Virus record (IMG/VR): IMGVR_UViG_3300035492_000070
Strand: one strand, 5' to 3'
DNA from: a virus
Lineage: Duplodnaviria > Heunggongvirae > Uroviricota > Caudoviricetes
Length of the DNA: 16,570 bases
Within the stretch, counting starts at the first letter, position 1. Each line of letters starts with the position of its first letter. Both the position numbers and the translations under genes were made by a program. This document shows positions 1 through 8,152 of this stretch, piece by piece. The notes under the pieces are model-generated. The model made no database searches and was not told the DNA's origin. It worked only from the letters and a program-made list of their open reading frames with translations.

Positions 1-419
1 TGCTGATCCAGATGGTTAGCCTGAGGGCTAACTATCTGAATACCTCAAAATTAAGGAATATCGGTTCACATATTAGCGGACTTATTTTCAATATGATCAA
101 CGAGTTCTGGCCAGAGTTGTTTACTATAGGTGTCATGTGTAAAATCACACCTCCATTAATTATGGCAACCGCTGGTAAGAATAGTTTTGAATTTTTTACT
201 AGCAATGAGTATAGCGATTGGGCAAAAACAGCACCTAAGCACTCTCATAAGTATTTCAAAGGTTTGGGTACATACAGCACAAAAGACTTTAAACGGTTCT
301 TGGCAGATCCTAAATATTCTGTTACTATTACGGTGACAGATAAAACAGACATCGAAGCATTGAACATAGCATTCGACAAGTCTAAAGCAGATGAACGCAA
401 AGAATGGTTATTAGGTTAA
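1..419 (+). CDS. gp60: Type IIA DNA topoisomerase large (B/TOPRIM) subunit, 3' part, gp39/gp60-like; 5'-partial; interrupted by a coding gap at 17-65
   Basis: Frame 2 (2-16) reads A-D-P-D-G then TAG. Frame 3 from 63 reads G-S-H-I-S-G-L...WPELF...KYFKGLGT...ADERKEWL. Joined, this gives the canonical TOPRIM DxDGSHI motif plus the YxKGLG and RKEW motifs of gp60/GyrB/Top2. The track's ATG at 12 is probably not the real start. Confidence 0.92.
   Translation, partial: LIQMVSLRANYLNTSKLRNIGSHISGLIFNMINEFWPELFTIGVMCKITPPLIMATAGKNSFEFFTSNEYSDWAKTAPKHSHKYFKGLGTYSTKDFKRFLADPKYSVTITVTDKTDIEALNIAFDKSKADERKEWLLG
10..65 (+). other. Programmed translational bypass (ribosome hop) element, T4 gene 60-like
   Basis: Take-off GGT 14-16, stop TAG 17-19, stem 10-21 pairing with 26-37 (12 bp, one G-U) around loop TGAG, SD-like AAGGA 53-57, landing GGT 63-65, resume codon TCA 66-68. 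49 nt are skipped. The gap resembles the T4 gene 60 gap as I recall it. Confidence 0.85.
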
Positions 420-429
420 GGAGAATAAC

Positions 430-699
430 ATGGGTTTAGCACACAGCTTAGCAAAACAAGTTCACGTTGAATATCAGAAAAAATTCCAAATGGAAGTCGA
501 TAAATTCATTTCTGACATATCTTCCAAGTTCATTGAGAGCGCTGCAACGGAATTGGTTGTTTCAGGTTTCGTATTAGCATATGAATCTTTACTTAGGAAC
601 GCTATTAAAATGAAGCTTCAAGAAGAAGGATTTATTTTCAAGGATTCTTCTCAGGGTTTATATATTGCTCTTCCTAAGTTGGCACCAGGTGACGAATAA
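430..699 (+). CDS. Hypothetical protein (89 aa) between the topoisomerase subunit genes
   Basis: SD AAGGAG at 418-423; its TAA overlaps the next ATG (TAATG 697-701). No recognisable motif. Confidence 0.7.
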   Translation: MGLAHSLAKQVHVEYQKKFQMEVDKFISDISSKFIESAATELVVSGFVLAYESLLRNAIKMKLQEEGFIFKDSSQGLYIALPKLAPGDE

Positions 700-1175
700 T
701 GCAAGATTACTCATTAAAGCAATTTATTGATAATGACTTGCGTGTTTTCTCGAACCTCGACAACGTAAGATCTATCCCGTCTATCGTGGACGGGTTTAAA
801 GACTCTCAACGTAAAGCCGTATTCGGTATGCTCAGTCATGGTTCTAGTGAAATTAAAGTAGCTCAGTTGGCTGGTCATGCTGCAATGTGTTTGCATCCAG
901 ATACTTTAATTAATGTTATGGGAAAATATTTTAAAATTAAGGATTTGGTGGGACGGTCTAACTTTGATTTGATATCATTCAACGAAACATCAAATGAATA
1001 TGAGGTCGACAACTGTGAACGTGCATTTGTGAGTGGTAACACTGATACTTTTGTTGAGATAGAATTAGAATCAGGTAATACAATTAAACTGACACCTGAC
1101 CATCTAGTTCTAACTAATTCCGGGTGGAAGAAGTCTGTTGATGTTAACGAAAAGGATTTGATAGTTAGTATCTAA
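699..1175 (+). CDS. gp52: Topoisomerase II A subunit (gp52-like) N-extein (63 aa) fused to split-intein N half (95 aa)
   Basis: RSIPSIVDGFKDSQRK and KVAQLAG are Top2/GyrA N-terminal motifs. At 888 the sequence switches to intein block A (CLHPDTLI), then block B (IKLTPDHLVL, TxxH) and ends KDLIVSI-stop. Confidence 0.92.
   Translation: MQDYSLKQFIDNDLRVFSNLDNVRSIPSIVDGFKDSQRKAVFGMLSHGSSEIKVAQLAGHAAMCLHPDTLINVMGKYFKIKDLVGRSNFDLISFNETSNEYEVDNCERAFVSGNTDTFVEIELESGNTIKLTPDHLVLTNSGWKKSVDVNEKDLIVSI
888..1172 (+). mobile_element. Split intein N-fragment (IntN)
   Basis: Starts with Cys1 (TGT 888-890); block A CLHPDT, block B TPDH; no endonuclease domain; stops at the position typical for natural IntN halves. 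Confidence 0.9.
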
Positions 1176-1180
1176 TATCA

Positions 1181-1233
1181 CTGTGTGTATACTATCTTAT
1201 ATTTTATAAATATATTTATTAGTATACACACGG
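1181..1233 (+). promoter_or_regulatory. RNA hairpin covering the endonuclease RBS, with late promoter TATAAATA (1205-1212) in its loop
   Basis: GTGTGTATACTA 1183-1194 is the reverse complement of TAGTATACACAC 1220-1231. U-G and C-G pairs extend the stem to 1181/1233, into the GGAG SD (1232-1235). Exact T4 late promoter consensus at 1205-1212. Confidence 0.7.
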
Positions 1234-1241
1234 AGATGAAA

Positions 1242-2282
1242 ATGTTTTGTTATACTATAAGAATGAAAAATAACGATACTGTCATATATTGCGGCGCGGT
1301 TATAGGTAAAAATAAACAACCTTTAGATAGGTTTAACGAACATATACAAGGAAAAGGTGGTAAGTTTCTTTACGAGGCGATTATAAAAGGTAATCTTGAT
1401 GTTAGTAATATCTATATTCAAGTAGAGTCATATCATCGTACTTACCTTGAAACTTTTGAAAAAGAACGAGAACTTATATTACATCATCGAACATACAATA
1501 AATGGGGCTCAGGATACAACGGTAACTGTGGTGGTGGTTTATTCATAGGCAAACATACAAGGTGCTATAAGTTCAAAGAGAATGGCCATTGTTATCTTAT
1601 GCCCGTCGACAGCACTTATCAGAAAACGGAGATTGTAGATAGAGTGGAAGATGTTGTAGGAATTTCATCACAAAATTGGAGAAGTTTATCCTGTTTAAAA
1701 ACGGATATTAAAATACGCAGTTGTGTTATGGTAGGAGACCTCTCTGGTTATAAATGTTTGGAGTTTATCAAAGGTTTATTCGGCGAAGATGTAGCAATTG
1801 AGCTGTTGTTAAGCATTCTTGAGATTAAAGACTTTGATGTTAATATAAATTGGTTAAACCAGTTTAAAAAAAGTTTCGGTAAAAACGGCAATCAATGGTG
1901 CCCAGTTCTTTCTAAAATATCATATTACGAAAACAAAACATATACATTAAAATGCCCCGAGTCTTTAAGGTTAAAAACAAGTTTGAAATTAAAGGGCAGA
2001 TGTATTAATGTAAACGAAGGGTGGTTAAAAGGAAGACAAAATTTTAGGGAAAGAGTTGGAAAGAAACAATTTACCAATGCTGAGATTAAAGGTAGAGTTA
2101 GAACAACCAAAGCTGTTATCGAAGATTGGAAAATTAAATCAAAAGAAGAAAGATTGAATAAAACCCAATCAGGTAGAGATGCAATGAATATTCAAGTTGA
2201 GTGCGAGCACTGCAAAAGAATAATTAATGGTTTGGGAAATTATAAAAGATGGCATGGCGACAATTGCAAAAATAAAGGGTGA
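1242..2282 (+). CDS. Free-standing GIY-YIG family homing endonuclease inside the split intein
   Basis: FCYTIR..TVIYCG (GIY-YIG-like), RFNEH, E..LI....Y....GYN motifs; C-terminal CEHC...NYKRWHGDNCK Zn-binding motif common in phage endonucleases. Likely start ATG 1242 (6 nt after GGAG) or 1236, not the GTG at 1185. Confidence 0.8.
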   Translation: MFCYTIRMKNNDTVIYCGAVIGKNKQPLDRFNEHIQGKGGKFLYEAIIKGNLDVSNIYIQVESYHRTYLETFEKERELILHHRTYNKWGSGYNGNCGGGLFIGKHTRCYKFKENGHCYLMPVDSTYQKTEIVDRVEDVVGISSQNWRSLSCLKTDIKIRSCVMVGDLSGYKCLEFIKGLFGEDVAIELLLSILEIKDFDVNINWLNQFKKSFGKNGNQWCPVLSKISYYENKTYTLKCPESLRLKTSLKLKGRCINVNEGWLKGRQNFRERVGKKQFTNAEIKGRVRTTKAVIEDWKIKSKEERLNKTQSGRDAMNIQVECEHCKRIINGLGNYKRWHGDNCKNKG

Positions 2283-2286
2283 GTAA

Positions 2287-2412
2287 ATGAAATATATTAG
2301 TGTTAAGAGTGTAAAATCTATAAAGTTACCTTTCCCTGTAGATGTTTATGACCTTACGGTTTCCAAAAATCATAATTTTCAAGCAACGTTTGACAATATT
2401 ATAGTGCATAAT
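2287..2412 (+). mobile_element. Split intein C-fragment (IntC)
   Basis: Own ATG behind GGGTGAG; basic N-terminus; block F VYDLTV; terminal His-Asn (2407-2412); +1 Cys (TGC 2413-2415). Confidence 0.92.
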
Positions 2413-3555
2413 TGCACACATTACTCGCATGGCGAAGGTTCAATGGCTGAAACCATTGTGGGTTTAGCTCAGAACTTTCCAGGCTCTAACAACATCAATT
2501 TGCTTGAGCCTATTGGGCAGTTTGGATCTATTCTAAATGGTCAATCTGCTAGCCCTCGTTATATTTACACCAAGCCTAGCAAGTTCATGCGTAAAATGTT
2601 ACGAGTTGAAGATGACCTAATTTTAGAGCACCGTGTAGAAGAGGGCGTGAACTTAGAGCCAGTCAACTACTTCCCCATCCTCCCTTTATGGTTGGTGAAC
2701 GGTGTAGTGGGTATTGGTACAGGTCACAGTGTTAAAATTCTACCACGTGACCCTAAGAAGATTAGTGACTTGATTTCTAAGCTGGCTCAAGGCATTGCAC
2801 CTCAACAAAAAACGATTGATGATGCTCTACTACCGTACTTTGGCGATTGGAAAGGTAAAGTTACTAAGGGTGATTCTGACACTCAATGGGAAATGACAGG
2901 TGTACTGGAAGTTGTGAATACCACCACGCTACGAATTACTGAATTGCCGGTGACATACGGCGTGAACCGTTATAAAGATATTCTTATTGGCTTAATGGAT
3001 AAGAACATCGTAAAAGACTTTGATAATAAATCAAATGAGGAATCTTTTGACTTTGTTGTTACGATTCCTCGTGAAGTGGGTCGTAAGTCTTTAACCGAAT
3101 TGATTAATATTTTTAAATTGGTTACAAAGGTAGGTGAAAACGTTACCTTATGGAATAGCAAAGGCGCATTGCAACGATACGAAAGTGTCTACGAAGCCCT
3201 TAAAGAATTTGTAGAATTTCGTTTGTCTAAGTATACAGAACGCAAAGAAAAACAGTTGGATGAATATCAGACTGAAATTGACTGGTTGACTGCTAAGTAC
3301 AAGTTCATCGAATACTGGAACACCAAGTTAAAAGACCCTCATAAGAAATCCGAGGAAGAGTTAACTGAGTTGTTATCCAAAGTAATCGATGTGAAATATG
3401 TTGATCGGTTATTGTCATTACAGATTAGTTCATTGACAATGAAAAAGATTGACGAGTTAAAGGCACAGATAGAAGCGTTAAAAGAAAAGGTGAATGTTTT
3501 AACATCCACCTCTATTGAAACTCTATACGTTACAGATTTAAAATCAGGAATTTGA
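2287..3555 (+). CDS. gp52: Split-intein C half (42 aa) fused to topoisomerase II A subunit C-extein (380 aa)
   Basis: MKYISVKSVKSI...VDVYDLTV...IIVHN followed by C (blocks F and G), then CTHYSHGE, LAQNFPGSNN, GQFGS, SPRY (catalytic Tyr codon 2560-2562), LVNGVVGIGTG, ITELP. The predicted spliced product is 443 aa, close to T4 gp52 (about 442 aa). Confidence 0.93.
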   Translation: MKYISVKSVKSIKLPFPVDVYDLTVSKNHNFQATFDNIIVHNCTHYSHGEGSMAETIVGLAQNFPGSNNINLLEPIGQFGSILNGQSASPRYIYTKPSKFMRKMLRVEDDLILEHRVEEGVNLEPVNYFPILPLWLVNGVVGIGTGHSVKILPRDPKKISDLISKLAQGIAPQQKTIDDALLPYFGDWKGKVTKGDSDTQWEMTGVLEVVNTTTLRITELPVTYGVNRYKDILIGLMDKNIVKDFDNKSNEESFDFVVTIPREVGRKSLTELINIFKLVTKVGENVTLWNSKGALQRYESVYEALKEFVEFRLSKYTERKEKQLDEYQTEIDWLTAKYKFIEYWNTKLKDPHKKSEEELTELLSKVIDVKYVDRLLSLQISSLTMKKIDELKAQIEALKEKVNVLTSTSIETLYVTDLKSGI

Positions 3556-3999
3556 TTCATGGCGGGACCTGAGATAATCTTTCAGGTCCTCTCTTGTAAT
3601 GTAATCTTTGCCTATAGTGGTCTGTAAACGTAGGATTTCTTTTTCGATTTCATGTGAATGTTCACTGGTTTTAGCCAATTTATTTTCGATAGAATCGACG
3701 TGGCCTCTAATATAGTCAAGTTCTTTAGAAATGAATTCTTTCATTTCACGGTTTTTTGAGTCTACTGAGGTATAAACATCACTGATTCTTGTATCGAAAT
3801 GTGAACGAAAGTCTCTTAGGTCATCTTTTAGAGAATTGAAGGAGATTAAATTGTTATTTTTAAGCTCAACTATAATCTTTTCATTGTCTGTTTGTATTTT
3901 GGCGCTTTGCCACTTTAAGAACCAAATAGTTGAACCTACAATAGTCCCTGATATAGCAAGCAGCGCTACGAAAATCTCCAAAAGTGATATTGATTCCAT
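3544..3999 (-). CDS. Membrane-anchored coiled-coil protein (151 aa), late gene; possibly lysis-related
   Basis: N-terminal hydrophobic helix LLEIFVALLAISGTIVGSTIWFL followed by a heptad-rich region; TATAAATA upstream on the minus strand. Function is inferred only. Confidence 0.7.
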   Translation of the reverse strand: MESISLLEIFVALLAISGTIVGSTIWFLKWQSAKIQTDNEKIIVELKNNNLISFNSLKDDLRDFRSHFDTRISDVYTSVDSKNREMKEFISKELDYIRGHVDSIENKLAKTSEHSHEIEKEILRLQTTIGKDYITREDLKDYLRSRHESNS

Positions 4000-6769: not shown

Positions 6770-6913
6770 ATGAGCCTAACAAAAATAGAACAAATATGCC
6801 AGGAATGTGGTAAACACTATATTCTGGTAGTTAAACAAAAAGAAGTCCATGATGTAACCTGTTGCCCATTCTGCGGTCATGAAGTTGCAATTCAATCGGA
6901 CGAAGAAGAATGA
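6770..6913 (+). CDS. Small Zn-ribbon protein (47 aa), absent from the ORF track
   Basis: MSLTKIEQICQECGKHYILVVKQKEVHDVTCCPFCGHEVAIQSDEEE; CxxC and CPFCG motifs; SD AAGGGA; ATGA overlap with the next gene. Confidence 0.8.
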   Translation: MSLTKIEQICQECGKHYILVVKQKEVHDVTCCPFCGHEVAIQSDEEE

Positions 6914-7455
6914 GTGCAGTAGCCGGTCTAGACTGGTCAATGACATGCCCTAGCATTTGTATATGGGATAAGTCAAAGCCCTTCAAATTCTCGAATTGTG
7001 TTTTCTATTTCTATATTGATAATAAGAAATATGACAAATCATTCGGCAACATTCATGGCTTTAAGGCTGAACTCTATCAATCAGAGCAAGAACGCTTTGA
7101 TAATATTTCCGAATGGGCAATGACTATAATGCGTAAACATAAAGTCAAACAAGCCTGTTTAGAGGGATATTCGATGGGCTCATCTGGTCGTATTTTCAAT
7201 ATCGCTGAAAACATCGGTCTACTGAAACATAAAATGTGGAAAGAGGGCATTGAGTTTATTACCCCTGCACCTACCACAGTCAAGAAACATTTTAGTGGAA
7301 AAGGTAATGCGAAAAAAGAAGATCTTCACAGTAAGTTATTAGAAAGTGAAGGTATAAATGTATCTGAAATACTGAATTCTAAAATTAGTACCTCACCTGT
7401 TTCTGATATAGTTGATAGTTATGCTATGGTTAGTTACTATATCACTAACTCTTAA
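6910..7455 (+). CDS. RuvC-like Holliday junction resolvase/nuclease
   Basis: Acidic motifs GLD, LEGY and DIVD, plus PTTVKKHFSGKGNAKK matching the RuvC PxxVKxxxxGxGxAxK pattern. Confidence 0.8.
   Translation: MSAVAGLDWSMTCPSICIWDKSKPFKFSNCVFYFYIDNKKYDKSFGNIHGFKAELYQSEQERFDNISEWAMTIMRKHKVKQACLEGYSMGSSGRIFNIAENIGLLKHKMWKEGIEFITPAPTTVKKHFSGKGNAKKEDLHSKLLESEGINVSEILNSKISTSPVSDIVDSYAMVSYYITNS
7411..7438 (+). repeat. 28-bp perfect direct repeat, copy 1
   Basis: GTTGATAGTTATGCTATGGTTAGTTACT; identical to 8269-8296. Confidence 0.95.
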
Positions 7456-8152
7456 TTTTGTCAATAGCGGTCTTAGAGATAATTCTATGTCCGCTACTGC
7501 ATTTTCTAGGACCGTACATATTACCAGAATTGATTTGATGATCTCTGCAATACGATTCAATACTTCTAGTTGTGGATATAATACCTTCAGGAGATTCAAT
7601 TTCGTAAATAAATTTTTGTTTTGCTAAACTCTGTTTACTTTTGGTTTCATCAGAAGTTTTCTTACCAAACATATGGTTATTAGCACCAGACATTCTTTTT
7701 CTACATTTTTCTTTTGTTTCTTCAGAATATTTCTTATTTTTCTGTCCTTTGGACATATTAGACTTTGCCTTTTCTGAAAAGGGTTTTCTTTTAGCGCCTA
7801 GGTTAACTTCTTTTAATCTTAGTTTATGTTCTTCAGTTAAAGGTTTATTATACCTTGGGTGGAGTTTACCTTTTGTTGTTCCTTTTCCTCCTATAGACAT
7901 ATTATACGTATCTTTACGTAGAACAAAATGTTCATCAACAATTAGAGATTCAAACCAAAAAGCATCGTCTTCCGTAAAAGCACAAAATAAAATATCTTTA
8001 ATAAATGCAGCAGATCCGTACTTTTCAATAGCTCGCTTGATTGAAACGCCGGACCCTAAGTAATTGTCTTTTGAATTTGACGTTGTGTGTTTACCTATGT
8101 AAACTTTGTTGTTTATGGTGTTTGTTGTCTTATATACTGTATAAAATATCAT
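7445..8152 (-). CDS. Seg-like GIY-YIG homing endonuclease with NUMOD3-type repeats
   Basis: VYKTTNTINNKVYIGKH, YLGSG, E...YN..GG; repeats TEEHKLRL, SEETKEK, GKKTSDETKSKQS. Confidence 0.92.
   Translation of the reverse strand: MIFYTVYKTTNTINNKVYIGKHTTSNSKDNYLGSGVSIKRAIEKYGSAAFIKDILFCAFTEDDAFWFESLIVDEHFVLRKDTYNMSIGGKGTTKGKLHPRYNKPLTEEHKLRLKEVNLGAKRKPFSEKAKSNMSKGQKNKKYSEETKEKCRKRMSGANNHMFGKKTSDETKSKQSLAKQKFIYEIESPEGIISTTRSIESYCRDHQINSGNMYGPRKCSSGHRIISKTAIDKIKS

Follow-up and report, generated by a model that had tools for sequence, protein, structure and literature searches.

A gp52-like topoisomerase gene of a T4-like phage fractured by a putative split intein and a free-standing GIY-YIG endonuclease gene

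Background

How can a phage obtain the intact DNA-cleaving subunit of its topoisomerase II from a gene that breaks off after a short N-terminal segment and resumes only beyond an endonuclease gene? This question is raised by a 16,570-nt stretch of T4-like phage DNA (IMG/VR record IMGVR_UViG_3300035492_000070), hereafter the window, whose positions are used throughout and in which all parts lie on the + strand unless stated. Here the gene for a medium subunit of topoisomerase II, comparable to gp52 of phage T4, is present as two open reading frames (ORFs), the N ORF and the C ORF. The first ends in what appears to be the N-terminal half of an intein (IntN), the second begins with the matching C-terminal half (IntC), and an endonuclease gene lies between them (Table 1). 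In our judgement this gene has very probably been fractured by a split class 1 intein together with a GIY-YIG homing cassette, and its two products would be joined by splicing in trans. A sequence-only reading of the window had already called a naturally split intein with a free-standing endonuclease, and the call is upheld by Pfam matches, the catalytic residues, colinearity, the recurrence of the arrangement at four other loci and a model of the complex between the halves.

Table 1. Features of the interrupted topoisomerase locus in the window
Feature	Position	Strand	Description
N ORF (gp52-like + IntN)	699-1175	+	158 residues: 63 topoisomerase residues and 95 intein residues
N-extein	699-887	+	gp52-like topoisomerase II medium subunit, first 63 residues, C-terminal AGHAAM
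IntN	888-1175	+	95 residues, Cys1 (888-890) to Ile (1170-1172), then stop TAA
RNA hairpin	1181-1233	+	14-bp perfect stem, 1181-1194 with 1220-1233
Free-standing GIY-YIG homing endonuclease gene	1242-2282	+	346 residues from ATG 1242; frame open from GTG 1185
C ORF (IntC + topoisomerase remainder)	2287-3555	+	422 residues: 42 intein residues, then CTHYSHGE
IntC	2287-2412	+	42 residues, VHN at 2410-2412
C-extein	2413-3555	+	Cys+1, THYSHGE and the rest of the topoisomerase; 380 residues

The two halves of the topoisomerase gene

Examination of the C ORF reveals a type IIA cleavage subunit of the kind represented by T4 gp52 and the N-terminal domain of GyrA: its residues 43-411 match the Pfam model PF00521 (DNA_topoisoIV) over positions 42-419 (2e-65), and the catalytic tyrosine is present in the RY motif of SASPRYIYT (C ORF residues 91-92, tyrosine codon 2560-2562). 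The C-extein also matches the topoisomerase II family phrog_551 of the PHROGs database (4.2e-104), as does the N-extein (3.2e-16). Residues 24-67 of the N ORF match positions 1-47 of PF00521 (9.4e-10), and the model matches of the two ORFs abut. Ligation of the exteins is predicted to give a product of 63 + 380 = 443 residues, only 21 longer than the C precursor by itself, with the catalytic tyrosine at residue 113; the sequence-only reading had given this length and a tyrosine at about this residue, both exact on recount, and all of its coordinates hold against the ORF list and the raw sequence. Both half-genes are full-length open frames, each with its own Shine-Dalgarno (SD) sequence, and the start ATG of the first overlaps the stop of an upstream 89-residue ORF (TAATG). 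Run SRR11791770 provides an 18.6-kb Logan contig that matches the window at every one of 8768 compared bases, and is not independent of it because it possibly derives from the same sample.

The intein halves

In IntN the intein blocks A and B read CLHPDT and TPDH (Thr132 and His135 in N ORF numbering), and the half matches the Pfam family Intein_splicing (PF14890) over model positions 10-93 (4.6e-11, 43.2 bits), above the cut-off of 35.8 bits. IntC provides block F as VDVYDLTVSKNHNF, with Asp22 and His29, and block G as IIVHN; residues 3-42 of the C ORF match positions 120-155 of the same model (2.6e-5). It is preceded by an SD-like GGGTGAG of its own, and its ATG comes 4 nt after the endonuclease stop. 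The residues of class 1 splicing are complete between the two halves, comprising Cys1, TPDH, Asp22 with His29, and the terminal His-Asn followed by Cys+1. In an alignment of 26 N-halves inserted at the same site, in which overall identity is only 23-48%, Cys1 (Cys64 of the N ORF) and the block B His135 are invariant in all 26 and Thr132 is nearly so. Likewise, the five C-halves compared all share D22, H29, H41, N42 and C43 (C ORF numbering).

The protein P0144 has a contiguous mini-intein at the same site, to which IntN and IntC align in succession, IntC falling on its C-terminal part; the halves being in order along this mini-intein, the split lies at the usual place between the N-terminal and C-terminal motif groups. 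The net charge is -7 for IntN and +2 for IntC, and -5 and +4 for the strands that contact each other in a model of the complex; an acidic N half and a basic C half are the pattern of natural split inteins (PMC2677866). Among solved structures the closest to IntN are the DnaB mini-inteins 6frg and 1mi8, which are nearest in sequence yet distant (E about 1e-8). NrdJ-1 matches at an E value of 0.06 only, and no gp41-1 or IMPDH-1 chain appears among the solved-structure matches at E up to 1; the window halves are without close sequence similarity to the gp41-1, NrdJ-1 and IMPDH-1 families.

The complex model, built from IntN (residues 50-158) and IntC (1-62) with alignments that we supplied, scored 0.81, a mark that 58 of 80 solved complexes and 2 of 110 mismatched pairs attain; the best of 3 controls scored 0.04. 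At least 87% of contacts are shared between its runs, and the predicted local distance difference test (pLDDT) value of the partner is at least 70. Because split-intein complexes have already been solved, this result shows likeness and may reflect memory; on the model, IntN and IntC are predicted to associate into one Hint domain.

The complex model speaks to association only, and an explanation that stops at association has to be considered: the intein halves might be splicing-dead and serve as a mere non-covalent dimerisation module for the topoisomerase fragments, in the manner of the tails added to the endonuclease-split NrdA of phage Aeh1. Precedent exists in T4-like phages, where split enzymes function without splicing (PMC3045599; for T4 39/60, bioRxiv 10.1101/2022.08.31.505936). 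Nevertheless, all catalytic residues are kept in the 26 N-halves and five C-halves, which are otherwise 20-50% identical, and this disfavours the explanation because mere association needs no catalytic conservation. A cysteine at +1, where intein-less alleles have V, I or E, also speaks against it, and we regard a purely dimerising role as improbable.

Uninterrupted relatives

Among 50,697 phage records the closest isolate is Pseudomonas phage pf16, in which gp192 is an uninterrupted 446-residue gene set in a conserved order of neighbouring genes. The exteins are colinear with it without gaps, at 73.8% identity for the N-extein (residues 2-62) and 57.7% for the C-extein. The nearest intein-less allele in IMG/VR, L011, encodes a protein of 443 residues; it is likewise colinear with the exteins, so that the comparison with an uninterrupted gene suggested in the sequence-only reading came out in its favour. 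The Cys+1 position is occupied by V, I or E in intein-less relatives, which indicates that the cysteine goes with the intein.

At the level of DNA, megablast of window 600-3600 against the same phage records gave no match, and at tblastn sensitivity none of these isolate phages was found to carry an intein in gp52. A word-based protein search with the IntC region recovered intein-less topoisomerases only. Around the junction the DNA has diverged too far from pf16 and L011 (59% nt) for a homing site or co-conversion tract to be delimited. Matches of the type seen in Vibrio phage VAP7 (query residues 5-136) trace to an uninterrupted 453-residue gene, and the extra alignment is taken as spurious.

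The interruption itself, in a phage with many selfish endonucleases, could also be taken as the mark of a decaying remnant, in which insertion of the endonuclease broke gp52 and the phage came to use the host enzyme. This is highly unlikely, given that both halves are full-length open frames with SD sequences of their own, that the exteins remain 58-63% identical to intact homologues over their whole length, and that the layout persists in many diverged lineages.

The endonuclease gene and its hairpin

The endonuclease likely starts at ATG 1242, 6 nt after GGAG (1232-1235), rather than at GTG 1185, and a gene caller run on L010 gave the same 346-residue product. The protein has an N-terminal catalytic core, a variable middle and a conserved C-terminal region ending in CxxC...H...C; PHROG endonuclease matches cover residues 334-363 of the middle ORF. 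Endonucleases at the same position in L004, L006, L007 and L009 form one family with it. The GIY-YIG residues Y4, Y16, G18, R30, H34 and E75 (the GIY Tyr, the YIG Tyr and Gly, and the Arg, His and Glu) are invariant in all five, and the C-terminal motif occurs in four of the five, the L006 copy being without it. Of the four relatives, P0171 (25.0 bits) and P0007 (23.2 bits) pass the Pfam cut-off for GIY-YIG. A tblastn search with the window endonuclease against the 50,697 phage records found no match, and a word-based protein search with it returned nothing but itself.

Upstream of this gene an RNA hairpin (fold energy -24 kcal/mol, z -4.9, with none of 200 shuffles equally stable) contains TATAAATA (1205-1212) inside its loop, and its 3' arm together with a 4-bp outer stem masks GGAG (1232-1235) and the first ATG (1236). 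Hairpins at the same place in L004 and L007 have unrelated stem sequences, yet their loops too carry TATAAATA and their 3' arms the SD. Such an arrangement is known for I-TevI, segB and mobE (PMC2988022), and was found upstream of 15 of 16 fractured-gene endonucleases (PMC2677866). With its ribosome-binding site occluded by the hairpin, the endonuclease is probably not translated from early read-through transcripts; by analogy with these genes, it would be made late, from transcripts that start at the TATAAATA promoter in the hairpin loop. In L006, a relative from ENA, the hairpin upstream of the endonuclease is without TATAAATA and leaves the SD uncovered, and an extra 129-residue ORF of unknown family (L006 5480-5869) separates the IntC half from the GIY-YIG endonuclease.

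A further explanation is that the insert is lost as an intron before translation, or that ribosomes bridge it by stop read-through and a frameshift, which would yield a contiguous endonuclease-bearing intein. It draws on the IntN and endonuclease frames being in phase with one TAA between them and on P0060, a protein with a contiguous intein and an in-frame GIY-YIG domain at the same site. It is nevertheless the least credible explanation of all, since no intron family matches (a group I intron is rejected because the window has no match to any Rfam family), IntC lies in another frame after TGA with its own start, IntN and the endonuclease are out of phase in L007, and the intergenic hairpin with its promoter fits a separate gene.

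Proposed mechanism

We propose that a mobile cassette, consisting of a class 1 split intein and a GIY-YIG gene, was inserted in the gp52-like gene of a pf16-related T4-like phage. The two half-genes would be translated separately, each from its own ribosome-binding site, and the acidic IntN would join the basic N-terminal strand of IntC in a single Hint fold. As predicted from their sequences, Cys1, TxxH, the block F Asp, the terminal His-Asn and Cys+1 of the window halves could then perform standard protein trans-splicing, the product being the 443-residue subunit with an AAM-CTHY junction. By analogy with other homing endonucleases, the intervening gene product would cut intein-less alleles of co-infecting phages, into which the cassette would be copied.

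Some observations weigh against this proposal. At 42 residues IntC by itself does not, as would be expected, reach the Pfam cut-off (24.5 against 35.8 bits), and the window endonuclease likewise falls under that for GIY-YIG (7.5e-4, 20.2 against 22.6 bits). Furthermore, the closest intein-less allele found, L011, is only 63% identical in protein, and because of this divergence neither an empty homing site nor recent mobility is demonstrable for the window copy.

Distribution of the insertion sites

We searched 1.84 billion representative proteins with a profile built from three N-halves and obtained 6194 matches at E up to 1e-3, most of them inteins of other host proteins. The best 150 of these 6194 include 37 short proteins in which an N-intein is joined to a gp52-type N-extein. 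Counted as clusters at 50% identity, at least 26 of the N-halves in these best 150 are split exactly at the window site, four residues after the motif AG, at least 8 are split one residue beyond that site, and at least 3 after YHHGx. The same succession of IntN, endonuclease and IntC is seen in four other complete loci, L004, L006, L007 and L009, where IntC ends in HN followed by CT. Full loci split between YHHGD and S, with a different endonuclease, are present in a huge phage (LR756500.1) and in L013 from IMG/VR. A scan of IMG/VR with the N-half alignment recovered mostly intein-less relatives and two split genes, L072 and the aforementioned L013.

Contiguous inteins also occupy the window's own site, namely those of P0144, P0132 (with a large insert) and P0060. 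P0144 (741 residues) contains two contiguous mini-inteins 10 residues apart, inserted between IVGN and C and between HPHSD and C, and both sites are also used by split inteins of phage gp52 genes. P0060 (L091 465-3887; a single 4-kb Logan contig) is a GyrA/ParC-like protein with a contiguous intein at residues 47-478 and a second mini-intein further on. The GIY-YIG-like domain in the former matches Pfam at 1.7e-4 and SegE_GIY-YIG at 4.7e-5, both just below cut-off, and has no detectable relation to the window endonuclease; GIY-YIG domains were not known inside inteins according to Dassa et al. 2009 (PMC2677866).

Among the matches listed, no relative of the window IntN exceeds 50% identity. 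The closest, P0018 (50%), has an extein only 37% identical to that of the window; conversely, the closest extein among the matches listed, that of P0002 (67%), comes with an IntN only 37% identical to the window's. Such mismatches would fit movement of the cassette between alleles. A tree of the 37 N-inteins is largely unresolved, with 2 of 34 inner branches well supported, and is too weak to prove cassette movement or to tell a single origin of the three sites from several. We tentatively raise the possibility, to which we give a modest chance of being right, that the helix before YHHGE is an undescribed intein hot spot, with three adjacent insertion points and dozens of diverged Cys1/Cys+1 pairs.

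Site within the enzyme

Alignment to full-length human TOP2A (6zy5) and TOP2B (7yq8) places Ala62, the last aligned residue of the N-extein, at TOP2A position 752, so that the junction falls between the equivalents of TOP2A E753 and M754, and the second site, which follows HHGE, between those of E761 and M762. The region of insertion is presumably the helix-turn-helix of the winged-helix domain, and TOP2A M762, TOP2B Q778 and GyrA S83 are, we take it, equivalent drug-contact positions. The window site is in the helix directly before the drug-contacting helix of type IIA topoisomerases, 8 residues upstream of the TOP2A M762 position and 50 residues upstream of the catalytic tyrosine.

Mycobacterial GyrA inteins, such as Mxe GyrA, share with the window locus a host protein that is the DNA-cleaving subunit of a type IIA topoisomerase. 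They are contiguous and inserted right after the catalytic tyrosine, whereas the window intein is split and lies well upstream of it, a contrast that the sequence-only reading had drawn correctly with its estimate of about 50 residues.

Relation to known systems

Split inteins were described by Dassa et al. 2009 (PMC2677866) in gp41, NrdA, NrdJ, IMPDH, DnaE, DNA ligase and terminase, the intein halves flanking GIY-YIG or Vsr-like endonuclease genes, and the words topoisomerase, gyrase and gp52 are all absent from that paper. The window locus resembles these fractured genes in the same-strand gene order, the break point between motif groups, the acidic N and basic C halves, the intervening free-standing GIY-YIG endonuclease and the TATAAATA hairpin before the endonuclease start. 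The sequence-only reading had likened it to the fractured gp41, NrdJ and IMPDH genes, aptly so, as every layout feature that was tested is shared. It differs from them in its host gene, the topoisomerase II medium subunit, in an intein that is not close in sequence, and in having Cys as the +1 residue.

The nearest published parallel in host is a passing mention of a topoisomerase II large subunit interrupted by Hint, a VSR endonuclease and HintC in one metagenomic phage (bioRxiv 10.1101/2022.08.31.505936). There too intein halves flank an endonuclease in a phage topoisomerase II gene, although the subunit is the other one (gp39/60-like) and the endonuclease belongs to a different family. Novikova et al. 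2016 list inteins of GyrA, GyrB, TopA and Top6B in cells. In the sequence data, LR756500.1 and L013 share the protein family and the stretch before YHHGE with the window locus, yet are split 8 residues further on, while P0144, P0060 and P0132 use its very site and differ in that their inteins are contiguous. The Npu and Ssp DnaE split inteins have Cys1 and Cys+1, as does the window intein. Unlike these and the DnaB inteins, the latter resides in a phage gene, has an adjacent endonuclease gene and does not have its halves at distant loci.

No report of a split intein in gp52 was found in the full-text literature, a search that most subscription journals fall outside and in which absence is not proof. 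The suggestion of the sequence-only reading that the site is novel stands in so far as it is unreported in the searchable papers, and does not extend to sequence data, where the site is common, with at least 26 clusters and several contiguous inteins. The fractured-gene layout has been known since 2009, and with a gp52 host gene and a site for which no published report was found, we consider this locus a well-supported new example of it.

With this locus the cleaving subunit of phage topoisomerase II would join the essential replication genes that survive a selfish split through protein trans-splicing, while the understanding of how fractured-gene systems work is unchanged. The many diverged Cys/Cys split-intein pairs in this family are candidate ligation tools, and if they prove fast and mutually orthogonal they could constitute a natural library for multi-fragment protein ligation; use of the window intein as an orthogonal ligation tool is at this point an idea.

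Surroundings of the locus

The large subunit of the same enzyme shows a further interruption at the edge of the window. At window 11-65 (L010 9313-9367) its gene contains what resembles the translational bypass of T4 gene 60: the frame ends in ...DADPDG with GGT TAG (14-19), a short hairpin TAGCCTGAGGGCTA follows, and a second GGT (63-65) leads into SHISGLIFNMINEFWPELF (SHISGL) in another frame, with about 49 nt skipped. Upstream of the bypass, L010 encodes a gp39-like part (502 residues) and a 363-residue endonuclease. From the large-subunit pieces, the bypass and the split gp52 together, the topoisomerase II of the window phage would be encoded in five ORF pieces, and this one enzyme would depend on three rescue mechanisms (a split intein, an endonuclease split and a gene-60-like bypass), a vivid illustration of the load of selfish elements.

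Between the gp60-like gene and the N-terminal half of gp52 lies the 89-residue ORF mentioned above (window 430-699); in pf16 the two topoisomerase genes abut and there is no such ORF. It has no match in Pfam or PHROGs and does not resemble the small ORF that occupies the corresponding place in L009. On the - strand, at window 7445-8152, lies another homing endonuclease gene, with NUMOD3 and a match to phrog_314 (3.4e-44), antisense beside a RuvC-like gene (6910-7455).

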